Counted from the first letter of the stretch, positions 166 through 33,562 are shown. The stretch: DNA of 64,000 bases from Candidatus Daviesbacteria bacterium (GCA_030648435.1 JAUSHE010000008.1:3449-67448); one strand, 5' to 3'. The notes: generated from the sequence alone by a model not told the origin. A program made the numbers and translations.

Positions 166-1662
166 TCACCCATAAACTCCGCTTCTCCTTAAGACCATTC
201 TTTTTTCCACCTGATGGAGTAAATCATGGACAGAGTGGAACTCGAATCGTTCAACTACCACTCCCATCACTCCTTTTTCCACTAAATATTCCAGCACTTT
301 CGGATAAAGCGTAAGTGACCCACAGGCAATGAATGGAACTTTAGACTTATGCAGCAATTTAATGCCATCTTCCAAAAACTTTAGTAATCCATCTACCTCC
401 TGCTTATAAAAAGCCAGCTCTCCTTCCTCCGTATCAAAACCGTTTAAATAAGCTACAAGCTCATTTAAGTTTAAAACCACCCCGTCAACCCCTGCTACCA
501 AATAATCATCCAGATTTACAATATTTTCCGGTAAGGCAACTTCCATCCAAATTTGTAGCGATTTTTTCCTGGAGAATTTTTTTACTGCCAGTTCCCTCTT
601 CATTTGCAAAAGTTCATTTACTCCCCTAACAAACGGAACCACTATTTGGATATTAGTGAGATTCTTTTTATGACGGGCAAAATCCAAAACCGCCGCTAAG
701 GGTTCAAACAGGCTTTTCTGATGAAGTAATCTTAGAGCTCCGCGAACTTTACCCATTCCTTCTGATTTATCTGCCAGTTTAAAAAGAATAGGGGAATCGG
801 GAAAAGTTTCTGCAGACTCAACCAGCTTTAACACCACTTCATCAAAAGATTCATTAGGTTTGTTTAGGTCAAAAATTTTTCCTGAATCTATATATGCTCC
901 ATCAATCTCTTTTTCAGCAACGACACCCTCAGTTAGATCATAAAATACTTTAATTACGCTCCTAGCTTTGCAAGGGGACGCCTTACAGCTCGATACTATA
1001 GGAACAGATACTGGATTTAAAAAGGGTGTATAGGGCTTTATGCCGGCTAATTTCACTTCCCCATCAATGATCCATTCATATTCATGAGGGATAAAAAGTT
1101 TCTTATTGGCTAATAAAACTATGTCAGAAATCTTTTTGGAATTGCTTGGATGTAATTTTCCCGTTTTTATTCTAATTTCGACATCATCCTGCAGCGGATC
1201 AAAAAAAGCACTGCCACAACTCTCCACTTTTTTAATGAAGATAACTATTTGCGGTTCCAGGTTCTCCGTAATTCCGGGAGCAAAGCCATTATTCCACAAT
1301 CTGCCTTTAATCTGATCTAACCAAACAGCCAGCAGAGCAGACCAGAGATTTTTAACTGACTTAATTTTTTCTCCGCTCAGAAAAAATTCTTTATGCTTGC
1401 CTGCTTCTGTTTCCAAAATTGATGGCGTTGGAATAGAGTAAATTTCTTTTTTCACCAAAGTCAGGGATTGCTCGAAGATTTCCTTTTTACCAAAATCATA
1501 ATGTTCCAGAATAGATTTTAATTTAAAATTGGGTGCTGTTACAACAATTCCGCTGCCAACGGCAAACCCGACCCTTTGCAGCTTTGCCAAACCAACACTT
1601 AAACCGCCAAAAATCCTGCTGTCTTCATCTATTAATAATCTAATCGGCAGTATTTCAATCAT
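166..1662 (-). CDS. PEP/pyruvate-binding (PPDK_N-like) domain protein of the PEP-utilising enzyme family
   Basis: N-terminal IFGGLSVGLAKLQRVGFAVGSGIVVTAPNF resembles the GGK...G.PVP.GF.iT motif of pyruvate phosphate dikinase / PEP synthase nucleotide-binding domains. 498-aa ORF. Carries an in-frame REP insertion (..SSCKASPCKARS..). Confidence 0.5.
   Translation of the reverse strand: MIEILPIRLLIDEDSRIFGGLSVGLAKLQRVGFAVGSGIVVTAPNFKLKSILEHYDFGKKEIFEQSLTLVKKEIYSIPTPSILETEAGKHKEFFLSGEKIKSVKNLWSALLAVWLDQIKGRLWNNGFAPGITENLEPQIVIFIKKVESCGSAFFDPLQDDVEIRIKTGKLHPSNSKKISDIVLLANKKLFIPHEYEWIIDGEVKLAGIKPYTPFLNPVSVPIVSSCKASPCKARSVIKVFYDLTEGVVAEKEIDGAYIDSGKIFDLNKPNESFDEVVLKLVESAETFPDSPILFKLADKSEGMGKVRGALRLLHQKSLFEPLAAVLDFARHKKNLTNIQIVVPFVRGVNELLQMKRELAVKKFSRKKSLQIWMEVALPENIVNLDDYLVAGVDGVVLNLNELVAYLNGFDTEEGELAFYKQEVDGLLKFLEDGIKLLHKSKVPFIACGSLTLYPKVLEYLVEKGVMGVVVERFEFHSVHDLLHQVEKRMVLRRSGVYG
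966..990. repeat. REP-like palindromic element copy 1 (TTGCAAGGGGACGCCTTACAGC), in-frame inside a CDS
   Basis: Sequence identity to the copies at 18599, 19139, 19346, 24874 and 32489. Imperfect 9-bp inverted arms around a GGGGACGCC core. Confidence 0.8.
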
Positions 1663-4354: not shown

Positions 4355-5140
4355 CTAGCTCCTTGTTCTTTTCGCTTCTCTTGTTCGAGCAAGAGTATCT
4401 GCCTTTTGGAATCTTTCTGTTTGCATAACTCCATCTTTTATTTTTTGGTTCTCTTTCATCAGATTTGAATGCTTTTCTGCAAAGTCTGGCATAACTTCAA
4501 TGCTTTTATAACTTTGGCTTACTTCATACCATAAACCCATAATTGCAAGAGTTGTGTTGGCCAACTGCCATAGAGCTGCTTTTTCCATGTAGTCATCTTC
4601 AAAGTCGAAGTACGATACTTGAATCTGAGCACCTTCTTTTGAAGACAGAAACTTATATCCTCTGTTAGTGTCAACTAGGTTTGAATGACTGGAAACCTGC
4701 ACAGGTTCCTTTATCTTCAGTATTGCCTTAGATGTAGCTGGGTAATTTTTACTTAACCATTTGTATCTCTTACTTTTGAGTTTTATTGTGGAGTCCATGA
4801 TCCCAAACTCGTCTGTTTTTGCAAACTTCTCCACATCAGGGAATGCAATAGAATAAGCGGCATCTGTTCCAGATTCAATTAACTGTCTTAAGTTGAGTGA
4901 TGATTGTGCGTGGTGAAGGCGTATTATAGAAAATAAAGTAAGTAGATAAAAATTGCGGACAGAATAATAGAATCTTAAAAATATATCTTGTGGAGCCTTG
5001 AATTCGGTAAAAAAGCTTTCGAGCAATTGGAAAACCATCAAGTTATGAGCAAAATTTCCTCCATATTTGTTAAGTGCATTTAATGTTTTGTTATGTTCGC
5101 CTTCTATAATCTCAGTTAAGGTTCCGCTATGTTTTTTCAT
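4355..5140 (-). CDS. Hypothetical protein (261 aa), last gene of a 4-gene island operon
   Basis: Long ORF contiguous with the upstream gene (5140/5141). No recognisable motif. Its 3' end overlaps an 85-aa ORF in another frame (4177..4434). Confidence 0.5.
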   Translation of the reverse strand: MKKHSGTLTEIIEGEHNKTLNALNKYGGNFAHNLMVFQLLESFFTEFKAPQDIFLRFYYSVRNFYLLTLFSIIRLHHAQSSLNLRQLIESGTDAAYSIAFPDVEKFAKTDEFGIMDSTIKLKSKRYKWLSKNYPATSKAILKIKEPVQVSSHSNLVDTNRGYKFLSSKEGAQIQVSYFDFEDDYMEKAALWQLANTTLAIMGLWYEVSQSYKSIEVMPDFAEKHSNLMKENQKIKDGVMQTERFQKADTLARTREAKRTRS

Positions 5141-5962
5141 TTATTTCACTTTTTTAATTTCCACTAAAAACTCAGCATATTCATCATAACCTTCGAGAAA
5201 TAGATCTAACTGTTCCTGATTCAATATTCTCTTGTTTACATAAGGCTTCTTTACAAGAGGGATGACGGAAGTGACTTCATAAATAGCATCCATATAATCT
5301 TCTAATTCCTTTTTCGAAAGTACTTTTTCTGTAGTGGGTTTAATCACCTTTTCATAAAAAATATCATCCAATTCATTTATTATTTTAACTCCGATATCTA
5401 AAACGTTATTTATACTTGCTTCACTCGGGATGTCTCCGTGTACAACTCGGTTAAGTATTGAGGTTATTTCTAAGATCATATTCCGTACACGATTGTCTAT
5501 AACTCCAGTTGCAGCAAGTGTTTGTACCATTGTTCTCATGCTATGGGGATTTTTCTCTTCCGAGAAAGTAAAAAGTCTTTTAAGCCTAACTTCTATCTCG
5601 ATCCTTAGTTTCGCAAATGCTAAAACACCATCTCTTTCTGCAAGTTCGTGTAATTCATTAGCCAAAGTATCTGCTCTTTTTGAAGGTTTTTGATCAGAAT
5701 AGGCCTTCTCAGCTTTTTCTTTAAGCTCTTTTATACTTTTCTCTAGCTCAACTTCAAGATCGCCCCATTTTATTTTTTTAATCTGTGAAGCAAATGGTGT
5801 TAAAAGAACTAACACCATCAAAAGTATTGTTGTGTTGTCTATCAATACAAAAGATGCTTTAAATAAATGCAAAAATAAAATTAATGCGTTGAAGCAAAAA
5901 ATAACAGCAATTATTTTACCGCTCGTAATAGTATTTTCTAGCCAGTCTCTTAATTTTTTCAT
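5141..5962 (-). CDS. Hypothetical membrane protein (two N-terminal TM helices plus a charged/coiled cytoplasmic domain)
   Basis: Hydrophobic N-terminus IIAVIFCFNALILFLHLF...ILLMVLVLLTPF followed by KELKEKAEKAYSD. Operon member. Confidence 0.5.
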   Translation of the reverse strand: MKKLRDWLENTITSGKIIAVIFCFNALILFLHLFKASFVLIDNTTILLMVLVLLTPFASQIKKIKWGDLEVELEKSIKELKEKAEKAYSDQKPSKRADTLANELHELAERDGVLAFAKLRIEIEVRLKRLFTFSEEKNPHSMRTMVQTLAATGVIDNRVRNMILEITSILNRVVHGDIPSEASINNVLDIGVKIINELDDIFYEKVIKPTTEKVLSKKELEDYMDAIYEVTSVIPLVKKPYVNKRILNQEQLDLFLEGYDEYAEFLVEIKKVK

Positions 5963-9516: not shown

Positions 9517-9778
9517 CTTGCTTAAAATCCTTAGATCACAAGAAAGCAGGGTATAAAGATAAAACTTGGTTATCTTCTTAAGTCGTGCCCTTCAGAAAAA
9601 TTGCTCATCCTGCGTGATTTTAAATAAGGACCAAATCCTACTGATAGGCAAACTCTGAGTTTAGACCGTCCTGAAGGAGTAATTCAGGGAATTCCCGCAG
9701 ACCTGCCTGCCGGCAGGCAGGTCTGTTTGAGGGGTTCTATAGAATATAAAATCAGATTCCAGTATAATCAGAGGGTTT

Positions 9779-17388: not shown

Positions 17389-18234
17389 TTAGGAATTATT
17401 GGCTACGGCATTGTGGGACAGGCTCTCTCGTATGGCTTTTCCCAACCGGAGATAAAAGATGATTATGAAATCAGATTCTATGATAAATATAAGGAAACCG
17501 AACCGCTAAAAGACGTCGTTATTTCAAGCGAATTTATCTTCATTTGTTTGCCTACTCCCATGAAAGACGATGAATCGGGCATTGACCTTTCGATTATTGA
17601 AGAAAGCATTGCAGAAATAACACAATATACAGACAATACTGACAAAATCATTGTCATCAAATCAACAGTTGCTCCCGGCACAACAGCTTCGTTGGAGAAA
17701 AAGTACCCTAAAAGCCACTTTGCCATGAATCCGGAATTTTTAACAGAGGCTAATTATCTGGAAGATTTTATCAAAGCTGACCGGAATGTAGTTGGCGCAA
17801 ATAATGACCTAATTTCCAGAAGAGTAGTTGCTTTATATAAACAAAGGTTTCCCCGGACAAAAATTTTCCAGACAGACACTACAACTGCGGAGATGGTTAA
17901 ATATATGGCCAATGCGTTTTTGGCAACCAAAGTTATTTTCGCCAATCAGATGTATGATTTATGTCAGGCTTTAGGAATTAAATACGAGGAAGTAAAAAGC
18001 ATAGTGGTGGGGGACCATCGGATTTTTGATTCACACCTGGATATTACAACTGCCAAAGGTTTTGGCGGAAAATGCTTCCCCAAAGATATTATTGCTTTAA
18101 TCGGCAGAGCTAAAGAACTCAAAGTAGAACCCGGACTTTTGGAAACCGTTTGGAATATTAATAAAAAGATCAGAAAAGTTAAAGACTGGGAAGAAATCCC
18201 CTTCGTGGTGGCGGGAAAAAGTAAAATTAATTAA
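17377..18234 (+). CDS. UDP-glucose/GDP-mannose dehydrogenase family protein (short, lacks the C-terminal UDP-binding domain)
   Basis: N-terminal Rossmann [12 protein letters not shown]. Central-domain segments [26 protein letters not shown] and [10 protein letters not shown]. Only 285 aa. Confidence 0.6.
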
Positions 18235-18545
18235 ACGCGGGTTGCGCTCTTGCCGGTTAGGTCTCTTAAGTAATAAAGCTTTGATCTGCGGACACCGGTG
18301 GTTTTTTTCTTAACATCAATTTTTACAATACTGTTGCTGTCAAGAGGCCAGGTCCGCTCAACCCCAATCCCGGCTGCACCAATTTTCCGCACGGTAAAGG
18401 TTTTATTGACATCCCTACCCCGCAGCCTGATTAAAATCCCCTCAAATATTTGAATACGGGTTTTTGCGCCTTCCACCACTTTGTTATGGACGCGGATAGT
18501 ATCGCCAATATGAATTTCCTGCTCTCCCACTCTGACTGAAATCAT
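18231..18545 (-). CDS. rplS: 50S ribosomal protein L19
   Basis: [25 protein letters not shown]...[19 protein letters not shown] is strongly L19-like. Confidence 0.9.
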
Positions 18546-18598
18546 TGTGAAATTTTACCACAAACTACAGCCTTGATCAACCAACAATCCGTTTCATC

Positions 18599-18620
18599 CT
18601 GTAAGGCGTCCCCTTGCAGC
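18599..18620. repeat. REP copy 2 (CTGTAAGGCGTCCCCTTGCAGC), 5' flank of RAYT
   Basis: Reverse complement of copies 1 and 3. Confidence 0.8.
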
Positions 18621-18652
18621 ACAACATTATAAGTGGTCTAATTATATTAGAC

Positions 18653-19345
18653 ATGCCCGGTAAAAATTCCGTAAAACAATATACAGATAAGGGTTATTAT
18701 CATATTTATAACCGTGGAGTGGAAAAACGGATAATTTTCCAGGAAATACAGGATTATCTTGTTTTCCTATCTTATCTTAAAAATTATCTTCTACCAAAAG
18801 ACGAAGAAAAACTAAAAGAGAAATTATCAAATCCTGACACCTCTTATACAGATAGGGATAAGATTATTAAGCTTTTGCGGTTGAATAATTTTGCAGACGA
18901 GATAAATCTACTGGCATATTGCTTAATGCCCAACCACTTTCACTTTTTCATTTACCAAAACAGCAGTATTTCAATGGATAAATTTATGAATTCACTAGCT
19001 ACGAGATATAGTATGTACTTTAACAGAAAATATAAAAGAGTAGGGCCTTTGTATCAGGATGTTTACAAAGCTGTATTAGTTGCAAATGAGGAGCAGTTTC
19101 TTCATCTTACAAGATACATACATAAACAGGCTTTAGCTTTGCAAGGGGACGCCTTACAGCACGGAATGACTGATCAACCATCATCTTATTTAGATTATAT
19201 TGGCAATAGAAAAACAAAATGGGTCAAAACTGAAGAAGTATTGTTATATTTCTCTAAAAGCAACCCTAAACTTTCATACAGAGCATTTGTTGAAGAAAAG
19301 GATGATATAGAATTAATAAGCGAACTCACATTAGAAGATATTTAG
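18653..19345 (+). CDS. IS200/IS605-family HuH tyrosine transposase, RAYT type
   Basis: YHIYNRGVEKRIIFQ N-terminus, HuH motif LLAYCLMPNHFHFFI, catalytic Tyr context LTRYIHKQ. Start placed at MPGKNS (ORF-track start at 18614 overlaps the REP). Confidence 0.8.
   Translation: MPGKNSVKQYTDKGYYHIYNRGVEKRIIFQEIQDYLVFLSYLKNYLLPKDEEKLKEKLSNPDTSYTDRDKIIKLLRLNNFADEINLLAYCLMPNHFHFFIYQNSSISMDKFMNSLATRYSMYFNRKYKRVGPLYQDVYKAVLVANEEQFLHLTRYIHKQALALQGDALQHGMTDQPSSYLDYIGNRKTKWVKTEEVLLYFSKSNPKLSYRAFVEEKDDIELISELTLEDI
19139..19160. repeat. REP copy 3, in-frame inside the RAYT CDS (..ALQGDALQH..)
   Basis: TTGCAAGGGGACGCCTTACAGC, identical to copy 1. Confidence 0.8.
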
Positions 19346-19369
19346 CCTTGCAAGGCGTCCCCTTGCAGC
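19346..19369. repeat. REP copy 4, immediately after the RAYT stop
   Basis: CCTTGCAAGGCGTCCCCTTGCAGC, a near-perfect palindrome. Confidence 0.8.
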
Positions 19370-22300
19370 TCAAACAATCTTGAAAGATCCCGGACCCAGG
19401 ATTTGTTCAATAGCATCCTGCAGATCAAATCCGGTATCTATGGAAAAAGGTAAATCCATCCTTTTGGCTGCATCTCCATTTCCCAAAAATAAAGCGACAG
19501 AAGTATTACCGGGAAATCCCCGCAAGGTTTTGTTAATATTTTGCAAAACTGATATATCAGTGCCTTTCGGAATATATATTTCCAAAGTTCCCCTGCCGGA
19601 AACAATATCCTCCACCATATTTTCAGGATCAAACAAACTAATTTTTTCCACAATCAAAGACAATTCCTCTTCCCTTTTATCTACCCTGCCGGAAATTAAC
19701 ACTACCCTGTCTTTATCTAAAAATTCCTTGCAGTCATCAAAGATTTTAGGAAAAACAACCACTTCAATAGATGAAATGCCGTCTGAAATTTTTACAAAAG
19801 CCATTTCAGCTGCTGTTTTTTTCGTTAATACTTTTTTAACTGCCACCACTACCCCACCCAATTTTAGTGTTTGTCCGACATGCTCATCCCCCAGATCAGA
19901 TAATTTATTAGAAACAAATCTTTTTAACTTTTGCAGAAGGGCCAGAAAAGGCGGCTCATGCAGATAAAAACCAAGCAGTTCTTTTTCATAAACCAAAAGC
20001 TGATCCAAAGGCAATTCTTCGACAGCCGGCAACTTAATTGCAAACTGATTTAATTCTTCTTCGCTATCAAACAAAGATACCTGTCCTGATAATTTGTTTT
20101 TGTTTTGCTTGTGAGATTCCTCTAAACATTGATCTAAAATCAAAAGCTGGGCTGCCCTGCTGCCCAGATGATCCAAAGCGCCTGCTTTAATCAAGCTCTC
20201 CAAAGTTTTCCGGTTAACCAACCTGGTATCAACCCGTGAACATAGGTCGCTTAGCGATTCAAACTCTTTGTCCTTTCTGGCCTCCAGTATCGATTCAATG
20301 GCTAATAATCCGACATTTTTGATAGCTGAAAGCCCAAACCTAATGCCCTGGCCTGCTTTCCGCTCAACACCTGTTAACTGTCTTTCCAGTTCTTCTTTAC
20401 TTAATTCCTTCAGTTTTTCAAGAGTAAAACCAACCCCTGATTTATTAATATCGGGCGGCAAAACAACAATGTTAAGCCTTTTGCACTCCTCTATTGCGGC
20501 TGCAATTTTATCAATGTCTCCCGATTCAGCAGTCATCACAGCAGCCATAAATTCCACTGTGAAACTAGCTTTCATATAAGCCGTTTGGTAGGCAATCATG
20601 GCATAGGAGGCAGCATGAGCTTTATTAAATCCGTAAGCTGCAAAAGGGGCAATTAAAGCAAAAATTTCCTCCGCTTTGGCCCGTCTCATCCCTTTGGCAA
20701 TACAACCTTCGATAAATTTGCCTTTTTGTTTAGCCATTTCTGAGGGTATCTTTTTACCCATGGCTTTTCTAAATTTATCAGCCTCTTCCCAGGAATATCC
20801 GGCCAAATTGATGGCAGTCAGTAAAACATCGTCCTGATAAACTAAAAGGCCCAAAGAGGCTTCCGTATAATCCTTCATCCGCTCGTCAATATATTTAATT
20901 TTTTTAGGATTATGTTTTCTGGCAATATATTCAGGGATTACGCTTAAAGGGCCGGGGCGGTAGAGGGCCACCATGGCCTGAATATCAAAAATAGTGGTAG
21001 GTTTTAGCTCCATTACATATCTGGTCATACCCGATCCTTCAAGCTGAAAAACTCCCATGGTTTCCCCTTTAGCCAGCAGTTCAAAAGCTTTTTTGTTATC
21101 CAGCGGAATCTTATCTAAATCAACCAGGGTACCGGTATTTTCCCGGACAATCTCAACAGCTTTTCCCAAAATAGATAAATTCCTAATCCCCAAAAGGTCC
21201 ATTTTAACGAGGCCCGCATCTTCCACCGCAAACATGTCGTATTGTGAAACCAACCTTTCACCGGAGGCTTCTTTTTGTAAGGGGGTGAAATTGGTAATCT
21301 CATCCGGCGCAATCACAATCCCGGCAGCATGAACCGAGGCGTGACGGACGGTTCCCTCAATTCTCCCGGCCAAATCCAGCAGTTTTTTGATCTGCGGATT
21401 GTTTTTATAAAGTGCACCCAGTTCAGGAACTTCTTTGATAACATCAATTAAAGGTTTGTGAAAGCCCTGATAAGGCGGGGGGACTAATTTTGCGATCCTG
21501 TCTACTTCACTATAAGCCAAACCCATCACTCTGCCGACATCCCGGATTGCCGCCCTGCCCATCATTGTTCCAAAAGTAATTATGTGAGCCACCCTGTTTT
21601 CACCGTATTTTTTCATCACATAATCAATCACTTCATCTCTTCTGTCATCTGCAATATCAACATCAATATCGGGTAAAGTAGGTCTGTATACAGTCAGGAA
21701 CCGTTCAAACGGCAGAAGATAATCCAATGGGTTTAAATTAGTAACATCAAGACAAAATAGCACCATCGAGGCTGCAGCAGAACCTCTGGTATTGGTAATA
21801 ATCCCCCTGGCGTGAGCCCATTCCATAAAATCGGAGACCACCAAAAAATAATCTGCATACTTTTTTTGTTCAATTACGGAAAGTTCATATTCCAACCTGT
21901 CCTTGATTTTAGCCGTCACCCTAAATTTCTCTTCTGCTTTTTTATATGTTTGCTCCCGTAAAAATTCCATGGAGGTTTTATTGCCCGGGGTTTCAAATAC
22001 CGGAAAACTTGCTACACCCAGTGGGATTTCCAAATCTACCAAATCCGCAATTTTTTGGGTATTTTCCAGTGCCTCCGGCAAATCACTAAAAATCTCTGCC
22101 ATTTCCTCCGGAGATTTAAGATAATAATCAGGGGTATCAATCATTCGGAGCCTCTTAGTTTCCGATAACAATTTGCCTGTCTGCACACAAAGCAGGGCAT
22201 CCTGAGCCTCTGCATCTTCTTTCTTAACATAGTGATAATCATTGGTTGCCACAATTGGGATACCAATTTTTATAGACAGCTCCTTCACAGATTTTGTAGT

Positions 22301-22930
22301 TTGGTTTTGAATTTCCAGCAACTCTTCCAGATCTTTTTTGATTACTTCATCCTCAGCTACTGCGTAGGACGCTGCATAAGGATGCCTTTGTGTTTCCAGA
22401 TAAAAATTCCCCTCACCAAATATTTCAAGATAGGTTTTTAAGATTTCTTCTGCTTTAGTGCCGGAGGCGCCCCTTGTTTCATCTTTCATCAGGTTGCGGA
22501 TAAATTCTCCGGACGGACATCCTGACAGGGCAATTAAGCCTTCGTGATATTCCTTAAGTAGGGCTTTATCAACTCTGGGCCGGTAATAATAACCTTGGGT
22601 ATGAGCAATTGTAGTCAGCTTTATTAAATTTAGATAGCCCTGATAATTCTTAGCTAAAACTGTCAGATGATAAGGCTCGCTATCCAGCTTCCCTTCTTTA
22701 TCTTTGTGGGATCTTTTGGCAACATACATCTCTACACCAACAATTGGTTTGATTCCTGCCTCAAGGCAAGCTTTATAAAATTCAATTGCCCCGTACATTA
22801 CTCCGTGATCGGTGATAGCCGTAGCATTCATACCCAGTTCTTTGGTTCTTTTAACTAATTCGGGAATTTTGGATAATCCATCAAGAAGAGAATATTGGGT
22901 ATGATTGTGAAGATGAACAAACCTAGGCAT
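19370..22930 (-). CDS. dnaE: DNA polymerase III alpha subunit
   Basis: PHP N-terminus (HLHNHTQYSLLDG), 1186 aa. Palm/fingers segments and a C-terminal OB region. Confidence 0.9.
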   Translation of the reverse strand: MPRFVHLHNHTQYSLLDGLSKIPELVKRTKELGMNATAITDHGVMYGAIEFYKACLEAGIKPIVGVEMYVAKRSHKDKEGKLDSEPYHLTVLAKNYQGYLNLIKLTTIAHTQGYYYRPRVDKALLKEYHEGLIALSGCPSGEFIRNLMKDETRGASGTKAEEILKTYLEIFGEGNFYLETQRHPYAASYAVAEDEVIKKDLEELLEIQNQTTKSVKELSIKIGIPIVATNDYHYVKKEDAEAQDALLCVQTGKLLSETKRLRMIDTPDYYLKSPEEMAEIFSDLPEALENTQKIADLVDLEIPLGVASFPVFETPGNKTSMEFLREQTYKKAEEKFRVTAKIKDRLEYELSVIEQKKYADYFLVVSDFMEWAHARGIITNTRGSAAASMVLFCLDVTNLNPLDYLLPFERFLTVYRPTLPDIDVDIADDRRDEVIDYVMKKYGENRVAHIITFGTMMGRAAIRDVGRVMGLAYSEVDRIAKLVPPPYQGFHKPLIDVIKEVPELGALYKNNPQIKKLLDLAGRIEGTVRHASVHAAGIVIAPDEITNFTPLQKEASGERLVSQYDMFAVEDAGLVKMDLLGIRNLSILGKAVEIVRENTGTLVDLDKIPLDNKKAFELLAKGETMGVFQLEGSGMTRYVMELKPTTIFDIQAMVALYRPGPLSVIPEYIARKHNPKKIKYIDERMKDYTEASLGLLVYQDDVLLTAINLAGYSWEEADKFRKAMGKKIPSEMAKQKGKFIEGCIAKGMRRAKAEEIFALIAPFAAYGFNKAHAASYAMIAYQTAYMKASFTVEFMAAVMTAESGDIDKIAAAIEECKRLNIVVLPPDINKSGVGFTLEKLKELSKEELERQLTGVERKAGQGIRFGLSAIKNVGLLAIESILEARKDKEFESLSDLCSRVDTRLVNRKTLESLIKAGALDHLGSRAAQLLILDQCLEESHKQNKNKLSGQVSLFDSEEELNQFAIKLPAVEELPLDQLLVYEKELLGFYLHEPPFLALLQKLKRFVSNKLSDLGDEHVGQTLKLGGVVVAVKKVLTKKTAAEMAFVKISDGISSIEVVVFPKIFDDCKEFLDKDRVVLISGRVDKREEELSLIVEKISLFDPENMVEDIVSGRGTLEIYIPKGTDISVLQNINKTLRGFPGNTSVALFLGNGDAAKRMDLPFSIDTGFDLQDAIEQILGPGSFKIV

Positions 22931-24242
22931 AAGTTAGAAGTCTTTCCAAAATTGATTTAAGTTTCGAAGTGTCTGCTTTACCGGAAGATAATTTCATCAC
23001 CCCTCCAATGATTGCCTGCAAGGCAACCACTTTACCGCTTTTGTAATCCTCTACCGATTTTTGGTTTTCTTCCATAGCTTGTTTGGCTAATTTTTCCAGC
23101 TCTCTTTCATCTTCTATTATCCCCACTTTTTTACCTCTTAGCTCTTCAATAACCTGAGTTGGCAAAACTTCTTTAATATTTATTTTTTTGTTGATAATAT
23201 GATTAGCTACCTGAACTCCATTTACATCGTGTCCCTGACCATGTTTTACAGTGTCTTCAAAAAAATCAGCCAATTCTTTTGATTCTGTTAAAATAGCTGT
23301 CTGAGAAATTGATAATTTAAATTCTTTTTGAAATCTTTCTTTTTTCTCCCACGGCAACTCCGGCATTTTTGCTTTTATACTGTCCACTGTAGCCTGTAAC
23401 CTGTCCACTTTCATCTCCGGTAGGTCCGGTTCGGGGAAATAGCGGTAATCATTTGCTTCTTCTTTACTTCTTTGTAGATATGTACACTTTTTGTCTGCAT
23501 TCCATCCCCTCGTTTCCTGAGAAAGTTTTTCTCCTGCTTTAATTGCGCCAATTTGGCGTTTAATCTCATACTCTATTGCCACCGCCATAAACCTAAAAGA
23601 GTTAATATTTTTAAGTTCCACCCTGTAATTTGGTAATTCTTCCTGCCCCACAAGCCTGACAGAAACATTTGCCTCAAGCCGCATATCACCACGCTCCATA
23701 TCGGCATTAGACACACCTAAATATCTAAATAATTGCTGGAGTTTTTTGGCATAATCCCTGACTGACTGCACATCCCGAAAATCCGGTTCAGTGACTATTT
23801 CTACAAGAGGCACTCCTGAACGGTTAAAATCTATCAGTGTTTCAGAGTCTCTGTGCGTCAGTTTCCCTGTATCCTCTTCCTGATGCACCCTATTAATTCT
23901 AATTTTCTGTCCATTATCTAATATTAAATATCCATTTATACATAGTGGCCACCGGTACTGAGATATCTGATAACCTTTTGCTAAATCCGGATAAAAATAA
24001 TTTTTTCTTTCAAACCTGCTAACTTCATTAATTGAACAGTTTAAAGCCAGCCCAATTTTCATACAGGCTTCAATAGCAGCTTTATTGATATACGGAAGCG
24101 CCCCGGGAAGCCCCAAACAAACAGGACAGGTATGAGTATTGGGCTCTTTGCCAAAGTAGTCAGCACTGCACCTGCAAAACATTTTAGATTTAGTATTTAA
24201 TTCTACATGAACTTCTAGTCCGATAACTGGTTCGTAATTCAT
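22923..24242 (-). CDS. gatB: Asp/Glu-tRNA amidotransferase subunit B
   Basis: N-terminus [23 protein letters not shown] is the canonical GatB start. Overlaps the dnaE start by 8 nt. Confidence 0.9.
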
Positions 24243-25579
24243 ATCTTAGGCTTCTCCTTTTTCCAATCTGTTGCCTGCTCATAAGCCTCACCTACATCTA
24301 AAATCGTCTCTTCGTCCCATTGTTTTCCTAAAATCTGAAGTCCAACAGGCAAGCCATCAGAGAATCCACAAGGCACAGACAATCCCGGAATTCCTGCTAA
24401 ATTGGCAGAAATAGTACAAATATCAGACAGATACATTTTTAGCGGATCATCTATTTTTTCTCCTAAATTCCAGGCTGTGGTGGGGGAGACAGGACCAACT
24501 ATTACATCACACTCCGTAAATGCTTTTTCAAAATCCTGTTTAATTAAAGTCCTGACTTTGGCAGCTTTAACATAATATTCATCATAATACCCTGCTGACA
24601 GAGCATAAGTGCCGAGCATTATCCTCCTTTGGACTTCCGGACCAAAATCCCCTCTTTCAGACCCGAACCTGATACCATCGAAACGTCCCATATTGGATGA
24701 GACCTCTGAGGGCACAATAATATAGTAGGCGGCCAGGGCATATTGGCTGTGCGGCAGACTTATCTCAATTATTTCCGCTCCCAGTTCTTCCAGTTTTTTA
24801 ATTGCTTGCTCTATAACTATTTTTACCTTTGGATCTAGTCCTTCTGCAAAATACTCCTTCGGCACTCCAATCTTTGCAAGGCGTCCCCTTGCAGCACGGC
24901 GAGGGGACGCCTTAAGGAAACAATTTGAATCATGTCCATCTGCCCCTGAAATCCAATCCAAAACTAAAGCTGCATCTTCCACTGATTTTGTAATCGGACC
25001 AATAGAATCAAAGGAGGAAGCCATATGAAAAAGACCGTATCTTGAAACTCTGCCGTATGTAGGTTTTAATCCCACTACTCCACAAAGTGATGCCGGCTGC
25101 CTGATTGATCCGCCTGTATCTGATCCCAGCGAAAATACACACAAATCTGCTGCAACTGCAGCTGCAGAACCACTGGATGATCCGCCTGTAATTTTATTTA
25201 AGTCCCATGGATTTTTAGTTGGGCCATAAGCAGAGTTTTCTCCTGATCCCCCCATGGCAAATTCATCGCAATTTGTTTTACCGATTATACTAATATTTTG
25301 CTCTGACAGCTTATCAATAACTGTTGCATTATATTGGGGTATATAATTACTCAATATCTTAGAACCAGCTGTTGTTTTAATTCCTTTGGTTGAAATGACG
25401 TCTTTAATTGCCGCAGGAATCCCGCAGGAATTTTTTTCTATTTCTAAGTAAGCATTTAATTTCGGGTTTAATTTTGTTATTCTCTCAAAATAAGCCTTAT
25501 TTAGCTCTTCCTCAGAAAATTCTTTCTTCTCTAGAGCCTCAATTGTCTCTATTAAAGTTAATTTAGTGATATCACTCAT
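24239..25579 (-). CDS. gatA: Asp/Glu-tRNA amidotransferase subunit A (amidase signature family) with an in-frame REP insertion
   Basis: Amidase signature ([13 protein letters not shown]), 4-nt overlap with gatB. Start trimmed to MSDITKL adjacent to the gatC stop. Insertion encodes ..[16 protein letters not shown].. Confidence 0.85.
24874..24916. repeat. REP copy 5 (compound: full hairpin plus a partial second arm), in-frame in gatA
   Basis: TTGCAAGGCGTCCCCTTGCAGCACGGCGAGGGGACGCCTTAAGG. Confidence 0.75.
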
Positions 25580-25862
25580 CGAAAACTCCTTTTGTTTCAA
25601 ACATAGAATCTTTTGTCTTCGAAGCATCCGATAAAGCTTCTTCCCGGGACAAACCAGCTGCTGTTTCATCTTCCCTAATGACATTATTCAATCCAGTTAC
25701 ATTAAATGTGGGTTCTACTCCGGAAGTATCAACCTGATTTAACTGGTCAACATACTCTAAAATAGCAGAAAGCTGCTCTGAGTACTTTTCCTCCTCTTCG
25801 ATGGTTAATGGCAGATTCGCCAACTTCGCTACTTTTTTTACCTGATCTGCAGTTAATTTCAT
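25572..25862 (-). CDS. gatC: Asp/Glu-tRNA amidotransferase subunit C
   Basis: [41 protein letters not shown] is typical GatC. Heads the gatCAB operon. Confidence 0.85.
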
Positions 25863-32356: not shown

Positions 32357-32488
32357 TTTTGTATACTAGTTAGGTGATCAAAAGGAACTGGCTTACTTTA
32401 TTCTTCCTTTTTATTTTAATTTTAAATGTTGACCAGGGAAACCAAATAGCCACTCAAGGTTTGGCAGAATCATCTAAATAATATTTAG

Positions 32489-32514
32489 CCTCGCAAGGGG
32501 ACGCCTTGCAGCAC
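32489..32514. repeat. REP copy 6 (CTCGCAAGGGGACGCCTTGCAGCAC), intergenic
   Basis: Same element as the other copies. Confidence 0.8.
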
Positions 32515-33360: not shown

Positions 33361-33562
33361 GGGGTTCATGAGCCAATGAAAAACTGGATAGTGGAAGCCG
33401 CCACGGCGGCTAATACCGCAAGGGGGGAAGACATGGAAGCAAAAAAGGTACTTGCACAAAAAATCTTCGGCTCGAACCTCAAGCTCACCGACAAAATAGT
33501 TTGCTGCAAAGCGCTAAACCAATGGGCGGCGCTCTGCGCCGCCCCGCTTACTCGGGGATGGG

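Follow-up and report, generated by a model that had tools for sequence, protein, structure and literature searches.

To our knowledge, work on repetitive extragenic palindromes (REPs) and REP-associated tyrosine transposases (RAYTs) has been confined almost entirely to Proteobacteria, Cyanobacteria and Bacteroidetes, in which a REP is extragenic by definition. RAYTs are single-copy, vertically inherited genes (Bertels et al. 2017, PMC5581495). In-frame intragenic REPs have already been described (Di Nocera et al. 2013, PMC3733652), and in-frame REPs are also known inside the tnpA_REP genes of subclass 2.4 (Quentin et al. 2018, PMC6006769). Here we analysed a 64-kb stretch (hereafter, the window) of a Candidatus Daviesbacteria genome (CPR/Microgenomates; CPR, Candidate Phyla Radiation) with a GC content of ~38%, which carries a gene for a Y1 HUH tyrosine nuclease/transposase and a set of short hairpin repeats. 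The window probably contains a RAYT-like system, composed of one vertically inherited gene for a Y1 HUH single-stranded DNA (ssDNA) nuclease/transposase and its cognate hairpin (REP) family. The association of the REP/RAYT type put forward in the original prediction was upheld: a cognate hairpin flanks the gene of the Y1 HUH enzyme and has further copies dispersed in the genome.

The Y1 gene (18653–19345, plus strand) encodes a RAYT-like protein of 230 aa, with H95 and H97 in the HuH motif (LMPNHFHFF) and Y155 as the catalytic tyrosine (RYIHKQ). In agreement with its earlier assignment from these two motifs, the protein matched Pfam PF01797 Y1_Tnp above the threshold (E = 5e-12, 46.4 bits versus a cut-off of 23), and H95, H97 (NHFH) and Y155 were invariant in an alignment of 25 homologs. 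The AlphaFold model (predicted local distance difference test score, pLDDT, 82.8) consists of a beta-alpha core, in which Y155 is located on the helix formed by residues 146–167, three additional helices between strands 1 and 2, and a C-terminal tail of ~60 aa. This tail contains a conserved SSY motif, which is typical of class 2. The best PDB matches in Foldseek were 2F4F, 4ER8, 2A6O, 2XQC and 2VJU (probability 1.0, TM(target) 0.42–0.54), representing an IS200 transposase (2F4F, the top match), the E. coli RAYT-REP complex (4ER8), ISHp608 and ISDra2 TnpA. A sequence-only profile search of the PDB with the family alignment found nothing, and fold comparison alone succeeded. An identical protein is annotated as 'transposase [Candidatus Daviesbacteria bacterium]', on contigs of up to 97 kb. 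More than 7,700 homologs were retrieved, the best 120 of which are mostly 225–235 aa long and 64–88% identical; the few of these 120 with a named source came from Daviesbacteria, Levybacteria and Microgenomates. An exhaustive search yielded 185 clusters (50% identity) at E ≤ 1e-30 and 4,207 at E ≤ 1e-10.

The palindrome had been predicted to occur at least six times, and the window indeed contains six full copies and one partial copy. The 20-mer TGCAAGGGGACGCCTTGCAG, with ≤3 mismatches, matched at 969–988, 18599–18618, 19140–19159, 19348–19367, 24874–24893 and 32492–32511, while none of 100 dinucleotide-preserving shuffles of the window gave any match. The 13-nt core AAGGGGACGCCTT picked up the seventh, degenerate partial copy at 24901–24913. 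Instead of the 9-bp arms around a GGGGACGCC centre that had been described, the window copies fold as a stem of 7–8 bp, (C)TGCAAGG/CCTTGCA(G), with a loop of 5 nt that is asymmetric (GGACG, or CGTCC as its complement). They are predicted to form ssDNA hairpins, with folding energies of −3 to −8 kcal/mol. The cross-genome consensus is a longer palindrome with a stem of 13–15 bp, TTTAGCCTYGCAAGG-GGACG-CCTTGCAAGGCTA(AA).

Three of the copies are associated with the Y1 gene. The 5' flanking hairpin, CTGTAAGG-CGTCC-CCTTGCAG (18599–18619, plus strand; 1 mismatch; DNA fold −4.8 kcal/mol), is followed by the ATG 33 nt downstream. The 3' flanking hairpin, TTTAGCCTTGCAAGG-CGTCC-CCTTGCAGC (19341–19369, plus strand; DNA fold −8.1 kcal/mol, z = −4.2), includes the TAG stop codon of the Y1 gene (19343–19345) and spans the gap up to the dnaE stop codon. 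Between them, the copy that had been noticed inside the transposase gene (ALQGDALQ) was confirmed as an in-frame hairpin, TTTAGCTTTGCAAGG-GGACG-CCTTACAG (19132–19159, plus strand), which codes for L-A-L-Q-G-D-A-L-Q (residues ~161–169) directly after the Tyr motif. In the AlphaFold model, this block lies at the end of the Tyr helix, where residues 161–170 have a mean pLDDT of 64. The whole unit (18565–19369, plus strand, as delimited by alignment to the related locus L126) may also include a degenerate half-hairpin at its left edge (TACAGCCTTGATCAA, cf. TTAGCCTTGCAAGG; 18566–18580, plus strand), a weak assignment read from the sequence only.

The flanking copies had been considered inverted. 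Both match TGCAAGGGGACGCCTTGCAG on the minus strand and thus form a direct repeat. What sets the internal copy apart from the flanking ones is only its 5-nt loop, which is turned, and the asymmetric arms show that all three gene-associated copies in the window are oriented alike. Loops seem to be flipped or corrected at inherited sites (see below), and loop orientation is therefore a poor guide to the orientation of the element. A 3' motif, ACTATAGG, found beside some copies, was considered as a cleavage or guide site and rejected: at the PEP-utilizers_C gene copies (window copy 1 and L034), it corresponds to conserved P-I-V codons. The 3' flanks of copies 2 and 6 are alike at 10 of 14 positions, which is suggestive only.

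The original prediction regarded the copy in the Y1 gene as an insertion. By comparison of the homologous sequences, the internal hairpin is instead a family-wide feature and not an insertion in the window genome. The ALQGDAL peptide is fixed in place across the 25 aligned homologs, followed by variable residues with indels, and the pattern [QK]G-x-[ATSP] is present at the same place in 115 of the 120 close homologs. The loop residue is hypervariable, whereas the codon that follows it specifies A, T, S or P in all 115 motif-bearing sequences. These four are exactly the residues with NCC codons, which pair with GGN, the glycine codon, and the internal copy is therefore constrained at the level of the DNA and not of the protein. 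Compensatory paired changes (GGA..TCC and CAG..CTG) were also found in the internal copy.

We then compared the layout of the hairpins over 77 loci from genomes and metagenomes (denoted by L-numbers), by matching the 81 nt after the Tyr motif to the flanks of the same gene, with the 99th percentile of the cross-locus comparisons as the threshold. The post-Tyr segment exceeded this threshold in 33 of 75 loci for the 5' flank and in 31 of 77 for the 3' flank, and about 40% of the roughly 75 loci show the three-hairpin layout. The equivalent 5' hairpin is located 20–75 nt before the ATG, and its 3' counterpart overlaps or follows the stop codon. Most of the matches are direct, at both the 5' flank (24 versus 9, n = 33) and the 3' flank (23 versus 8, n = 31). 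Many unrelated, lineage-specific cores occur among the layout-positive loci. The hairpin sequence is thus genome-specific, yet within a genome it is identical at the 5' flank, the post-Tyr site and the 3' flank, and the DNA of the internal copy matches each genome's own flanking hairpins. While the core in the window is AAGGGGACGCCTT, it is GCAGGGCCTCGCCCTGGAG in L002 (Y1 protein 78% identical), AAGGCCTGGCCTTGG in L004 (69%) and AAGGAGACTCCTT in L005 (66%).

Some homologs contain a second in-frame hairpin site ~30 residues before the HuH motif, at residues ~50–65 (L070, L074, L082, L087, L092, L102 and L117). In L070, L087 and L092, the same hairpin is present at both internal sites, read in different frames. 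The idea that the internal hairpin marks the ancestral 3' end of a short IS200-like gene was rejected, because the SSY tail downstream of it is common to the hairpin-less members and the published class-2 proteins (PMC6006769).

The unit is located between rplS (18231–18545, minus strand) and dnaE (19370–22930, minus strand). Synteny is conserved in Daviesbacteria, in which the Y1 gene lies between rplS and dnaE, followed by gatB-gatA-gatC. As compared to the window, the Y1 protein, DnaE and ribosomal protein L19 are 78%, 77% and 77% identical in L002, and 69%, 68% and 69% identical in L004, respectively, while in L038 the Y1 protein is 81% and L19 82% identical. The identity of the Y1 protein equals that of its DnaE and L19 neighbours, which indicates that the gene has been inherited vertically at this locus, under a housekeeping-like constraint.

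Nested among the carriers are relatives without the Y1 gene at this junction. In L126, the closest relative (DnaE 81%, L19 92%), the dnaE-rplS gap is 19 nt and contains no hairpin, and the 31-nt spacer in L125 also lacks one. The 74-nt spacer in L121 contains a solo hairpin, TCTAGCCTCCAGGGGGACGCCTTGCAAGGCTAAG, whereas in L123/L124 a radical-SAM/SPASM gene (5036–5890) fills the junction and the dnaE stop codon is accompanied by a partial hairpin, TCTAGCCTTGCAAGGT. The dnaE-rplS junction seems to be a variable spot. Alignment of L126 (CACAAA/CTAAAC) with the window (CACAAA/CTA...TTGCAG/CTCAAAC) bounds the unit at ~18565–19369. The clean loss seen at this site could be due to precise excision as well as to deletion, and a solo hairpin would be the expected remnant of recombination between the direct flanking copies. 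In JAQUSJ01, a Daviesbacteria genome without the Y1 gene at the junction, three hairpins have a common variant arm, GCCTCCAGGG; they are located in gatB, at the junction as the solo copy, and in the PEP-utilizers_C gene (L121:1603, L121:5932 and L122:3682).

This pattern of presence and absence bears on an alternative reading, namely that the unit is an autonomous insertion sequence (IS) of the IS200/IS605 type, whose 5' and 3' hairpins would be the left and right ends, and which would transpose by peel-and-paste, the dispersed hairpins being solo ends or derivatives resembling palindrome-associated transposable elements (PATEs). We consider this unlikely. In its favour, the flanking hairpins are direct and on the same strand, as in IS608, the dnaE-rplS junction either has the whole unit or lacks it precisely (L126, L125), and the gene of L005 lies in another context, the dcw cluster. 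However, only one copy of the Y1 gene exists in 64 kb, the clusters of homologs at 90% identity are nearly all on 1–3 contigs (one is on 16), and the identity to relatives, equal to that of DnaE and L19, indicates long vertical residence at the locus. The protein itself points both ways. IS200 transposase is its top fold match and its Y---Q motif resembles class 1 (PMC6006769), but it has NHFH and YIHKQ in place of the class-1 motifs DH[VI]H and Y[IV]ENQ, and 230 aa with a class-2-typical 'SS' tail in place of the core-only build of ~150 aa. Furthermore, more distant members of the same family carry YIH[RL]NP, including YIHRNP, and no tnpB is present.

Three further sites are dispersed in the window, as had been predicted. 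One copy lies in the PEP-utilizers_C gene (963–989, plus strand; gene 166–1662, minus strand), where it is read as S-C-K-A-S-P-C-K-A-R. The second site, within gatA (minus strand), is a REPIN-like doublet composed of a full copy and a degenerate inverted copy (24871–24916, plus strand), which folds into a 15-bp hairpin with −17.6 kcal/mol. The third copy is intergenic, TTTAGCCTCGCAAGG-GGACG-CCTTGCAGC (32484–32512, plus strand), between a LysM gene and a PD-(D/E)XK gene. In line with the earlier claim of in-frame copies, the hairpins in the PEP-utilizers_C gene, the Y1 gene and gatA are all read through without stops.

To follow these copies in related genomes, we scanned 185,579 species-representative genomes (GTDB) with the 20-mer; the source metagenome-assembled genome (MAG) is not in this set, and relatives were used in its place. 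The scan returned 35 loci, which cluster in Daviesbacteria JACPEX (7 matches) and Blackburnbacteria JACPEJ (8 loci). These two genomes contain 7–9 exact copies of the 20-mer, and both carry the Y1 gene. The other loci belong to further Daviesbacteria, Levybacteria, Patescibacteria and low-GC MAGs that bear the title 'uncultured Gammaproteobacteria bacterium' (L007, L011, L014, L021, L024, L026, L032, L036, L037, L039 and L040). In these MAGs, the GC content is 36–50% and the 20-mer is often read as LASQGDALQG. Since L026 is syntenic with the window genes (47–58% protein identity), it is a mislabelled CPR genome.

Among the 44 copies from the window and the CPR loci, 31 lie within open reading frames (ORFs) of ≥120 aa; when the copies attached to the Y1 gene are excluded, ~26 of 32 dispersed copies (about 80%) are intragenic, read in five frames. 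That most dispersed copies are inside genes is due to the hairpin core, all six frames of which are free of stop codons. The genuine host genes in relatives encode O-antigen ligase, Fmt, DprA, SHMT, UvrC, a PMT_2 glycosyltransferase, a P-type ATPase and a class I Trp/Tyr-type aminoacyl-tRNA synthetase. The density is low, about one copy per 15–30 kb, with 3 dispersed sites in 63 kb of the window. For other hairpin variants, we found only 9 dispersed copies in the 300 kb around homologous genes; therefore, a high abundance of REPs cannot be claimed.

These distributions make it improbable that the hairpins serve the host as regulatory or structural elements (mRNA stabilisers, terminators or protein-binding sites) and have nothing to do with the Y1 protein, being gathered around its gene by coincidence or at general hot spots. 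The 3' copy is located exactly between two convergent genes, where published REPs, often transcribed and 3' of genes, would also be found (PMC3733652), and the L121 junction has a hairpin without the Y1 gene. Nevertheless, the genome-specific hairpins track the gene in >30 independent loci, coding sequence included, and most copies lie in ORFs, a place in which termination would do harm. The hairpins are not followed by a T-run, and a scan of 18400–19500 found no terminator-like site and promoter-like matches at chance level. An Rfam scan of the whole window detected six tRNAs only, with no family at the hairpins.

The proposal that the repeat is a selected peptide motif, LQGDALQ, and not a DNA element is effectively refuted by the diversity of frames. 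Members of the Y1 family do conserve an LQGDAL-like peptide, which is also found in several host proteins. Depending on the gene, however, one and the same DNA is read as LQGDALQ (11 copies), ARRPLA (5), CK(AS/GT)PC (3), ARGRLA (3) or LQGVPLQ (2) and also occurs between genes, its synonymous positions are conserved, and the permitted residues are exactly those that preserve the palindrome.

The copies in gatA (24239–25579, minus strand) and the PEP-utilizers_C gene had been described as inserted. As judged from their orthologs, both are REP-derived, in-frame and inherited, and are located in hypervariable linkers with no net length added. The gatA doublet aligns to an ordinary, poorly conserved GatA linker, which it replaces, and the window GatA is 4 aa shorter at this linker than the L002 ortholog and the solved Aquifex GatA (3H0L). 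The gatA gene of JACPEX (L038) contains the same doublet with two nucleotide differences, and the doublet is therefore inherited. In the PEP-utilizers_C protein, CKASPCKAR likewise falls in a hypervariable linker, and orthologs with 65–78% identity have KASP/RASP, KGTP/RGTP or KATP there, with site and frame unchanged. The KGTP/RGTP form corresponds to the 13-mer reverse-complemented in place, and KATP to the perfect palindrome AAGGCGACGCCTT. The PEP-utilizers_C copy thus bears the marks of an old hairpin that has been passed on by inheritance while its centre was flipped or 'corrected', which we infer to occur by hairpin-mediated template switching. Since both the gatA doublet and the PEP-utilizers_C copy are common to other Daviesbacteria, they are inherited, with no sign of recent spread. 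The outcome that had been named as a refutation, namely orthologs with the same residues, was partly seen, though its cause is an inherited REP and not the lack of one. Two candidates were set aside in these comparisons: a palindrome at the doublet site in the L002 gatA may be due to chance and was not used, and a 500-aa PEPcase_2 gene in L004 was rejected as a PEP-utilizers_C ortholog (24% identity).

Hairpins are also present at a different site in gatA, before PLLGIP, in L004 (L004:14799-14813) and L026 (L026:691-708). This one site is shared by the two loci, each with the variant of its own genome, and falls in a 23-aa segment that is missing from the GatA proteins of the window and of L002. 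Orthologs of the PEP-utilizers_C protein contain other palindrome-like in-frame inserts, namely HSLRLPDGSLK (P0122), HSLRLQDGSLK at another site (P0223), GLPAGQA (P0152), IARSEATKQS / CHAIARDD (P0126, P0133) and an insert of ~25 aa (P0128). Several repeat families seem to colonise the loops of this protein. A longer gatA ORF (24239–25684) starts 35 codons upstream of the ortholog-aligned start, MSDITKLTL, and overlaps a gatC-sized ORF (25572–25862); the longer start is probably unused. The window contains two further GC-rich perfect palindromes, at 9698–9725 and 33524–33544, which are unrelated to the REP family: CAGACCTGCCTGCCGGCAGGCAGGTCTG, with a 12-bp stem, lies ~50 nt upstream of tRNA-Glu, and the palindrome GGGCGGCGCTCTGCGCCGCCC adjoins tRNA-Thr.

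Several observations weigh against the interpretation as a RAYT-like system. The association between the protein and the hairpin is one of position and co-variation only. The flanking copies are direct and not inverted REPINs, and the gatA site is the only doublet. The consensus palindrome lacks the canonical 5' GT[AG]G foot of REPs (no GTAG/GTGG). Of the two profile matches expected for the protein, that to Y1_Tnp was obtained, while the score for the NCBIfam RAYT equivalog (NF047646 REP_Tyr_transpos) was 37.6 bits, under the cut-off of 80. The window clade has YIHKQ in place of the class-2 Y---NP motif. The copy number is low, most homologous loci have no dispersed copy within 10 kb on either side, and about half of the family, mostly the distant YIHxNP members, has no hairpin in or around the gene. 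Finally, the counts cover the window and its relatives, as the source MAG is outside the GTDB representatives.

If the system is RAYT-like, the enzyme would bind the hairpin extruded in ssDNA, cut beside it and re-join, by analogy with IS608 TnpA, ISDra2 TnpA and E. coli TnpA_REP, an analogy that rests on established structures and biochemistry as well as published work (PMC6006769, PMC3479197). This cutting and re-joining would occasionally copy or move hairpins. The enzyme probably prefers to act in cis, and because of this preference its own gene and flanks would be repeatedly colonised or refreshed. The colonised flanks, the two colonised loops of the gene itself and the concerted change of the copies fit a cis preference, possibly with in-place replacement. 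In a gene-dense genome, only those copies that lie in-frame and in tolerant linkers would persist, and at inherited sites hairpin-mediated template switching may flip the loop (KASP to KGTP) or perfect the palindrome.

A bolder version of this scheme is conceivable, though doubtful: the enzyme may overwrite hairpins in place, in the loops of essential proteins and in the two loops of its own gene, and so homogenise the inherited sites, with loop-flipping toggling the peptide and the internal hairpin serving as an obligatory cis site. Three observations hint at such overwriting. The gene-associated copies (three, sometimes four) change together across >30 lineages; in JAQUSJ01, the inherited PEP-utilizers_C copy and the solo junction copy have the same hybrid arms, CTCCAGGGG...CCTTGCRAGGCTA; and the gatA genes of L004 and L026 have own-genome variants at their shared site. 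If true, the internal hairpin would be a self-recognition or autoregulation site and not a tolerated passenger.

With regard to its significance, a system of the REP/RAYT kind in ultra-small, gene-dense CPR genomes would be one in which most copies end up within genes, and in which the nuclease gene permanently hosts its own recognition hairpin, with a core open in all six frames. LQGDALQ, CKASPC and ARRPLA in CPR proteins are repeat-derived and should not be taken as functional motifs. The thousands of metagenomic homologs provide a natural data set for the co-evolution of a domesticated ssDNA transposase and its DNA target, which also bears on the palindromic remodelling of essential-protein linkers and on in-place hairpin refreshing.

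Among the known systems, the locus resembles REP/RAYT (TnpA_REP, class 2 TnpA_Y1; E. coli YafM, 4ER8) in its common Y1 HUH fold, its apparently single-copy, vertically inherited gene, the cognate hairpin, which both flanks the gene and recurs elsewhere in the genome, one REPIN-like doublet (gatA), the SSY tail motif, and YIHxNP in distant family members. It differs in the absence of the GT[AG]G foot, the direct flanking copies, YIHKQ, the score below the NCBIfam cut-off, the low copy number, the ~80% of dispersed copies that are intragenic, and the CPR host. As in the subclass 2.4 tnpA_REP genes (PMC6006769), the gene has in-frame copies of its own cognate REP in a peripheral loop. Here, however, the sites are just after the Tyr motif (in some relatives also ~30 residues before HuH), and the feature persists across a deep CPR family, with all of the copies changing in concert.

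With the IS200/IS605 elements (IS608 and ISDra2 TnpA), the locus has in common the fold, the one-strand subterminal hairpins at both ends, the Y---Q motif, and clean presence or absence at a site without obvious target duplication. In contrast to these elements, it is apparently a single copy, co-diverging with its housekeeping neighbours, encodes 230 aa with extra helices and a tail, has NHFH, and is not accompanied by TnpB. In plastid non-coding DNA, small hairpin-loop inversions are found in which the loop flips between short inverted repeats while the flanks stay, giving two states among orthologs. The flip described here occurs within coding sequence, and the peptide is altered (KASP to KGTP).

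The Rickettsia palindromic element RPE-1, at about 100–150 bp, is much longer than the unit of 20–35 bp found here, which also differs from the Rickettsia elements in having a cognate Y1 gene at the same locus, in adding no net length in the cases examined here, and probably in sequence. The parallel with these elements drawn in the original prediction is apt: as in the published intragenic REPs and Rickettsia palindromic elements (PMC3733652), short palindromes lie in-frame in housekeeping genes of a reduced genome, where linkers and loops are tolerant. Full-text literature searches for REP/RAYT in CPR/Patescibacteria found nothing relevant. The novelty claimed earlier accordingly holds for the host lineage and the architecture, but not for in-frame intragenic REPs (PMC3733652) or REPs within tnpA_REP genes (PMC6006769), which have been published. 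Taken together, this is probably a known kind of system (REP/RAYT) and not a new kind of element; what is new is its host lineage, the direct three-hairpin layout with a persistent intragenic site after the Tyr motif, the non-canonical hairpin, in which the GT[AG]G foot is missing, the location of most copies within genes, and the loop-flip variants in coding sequence.

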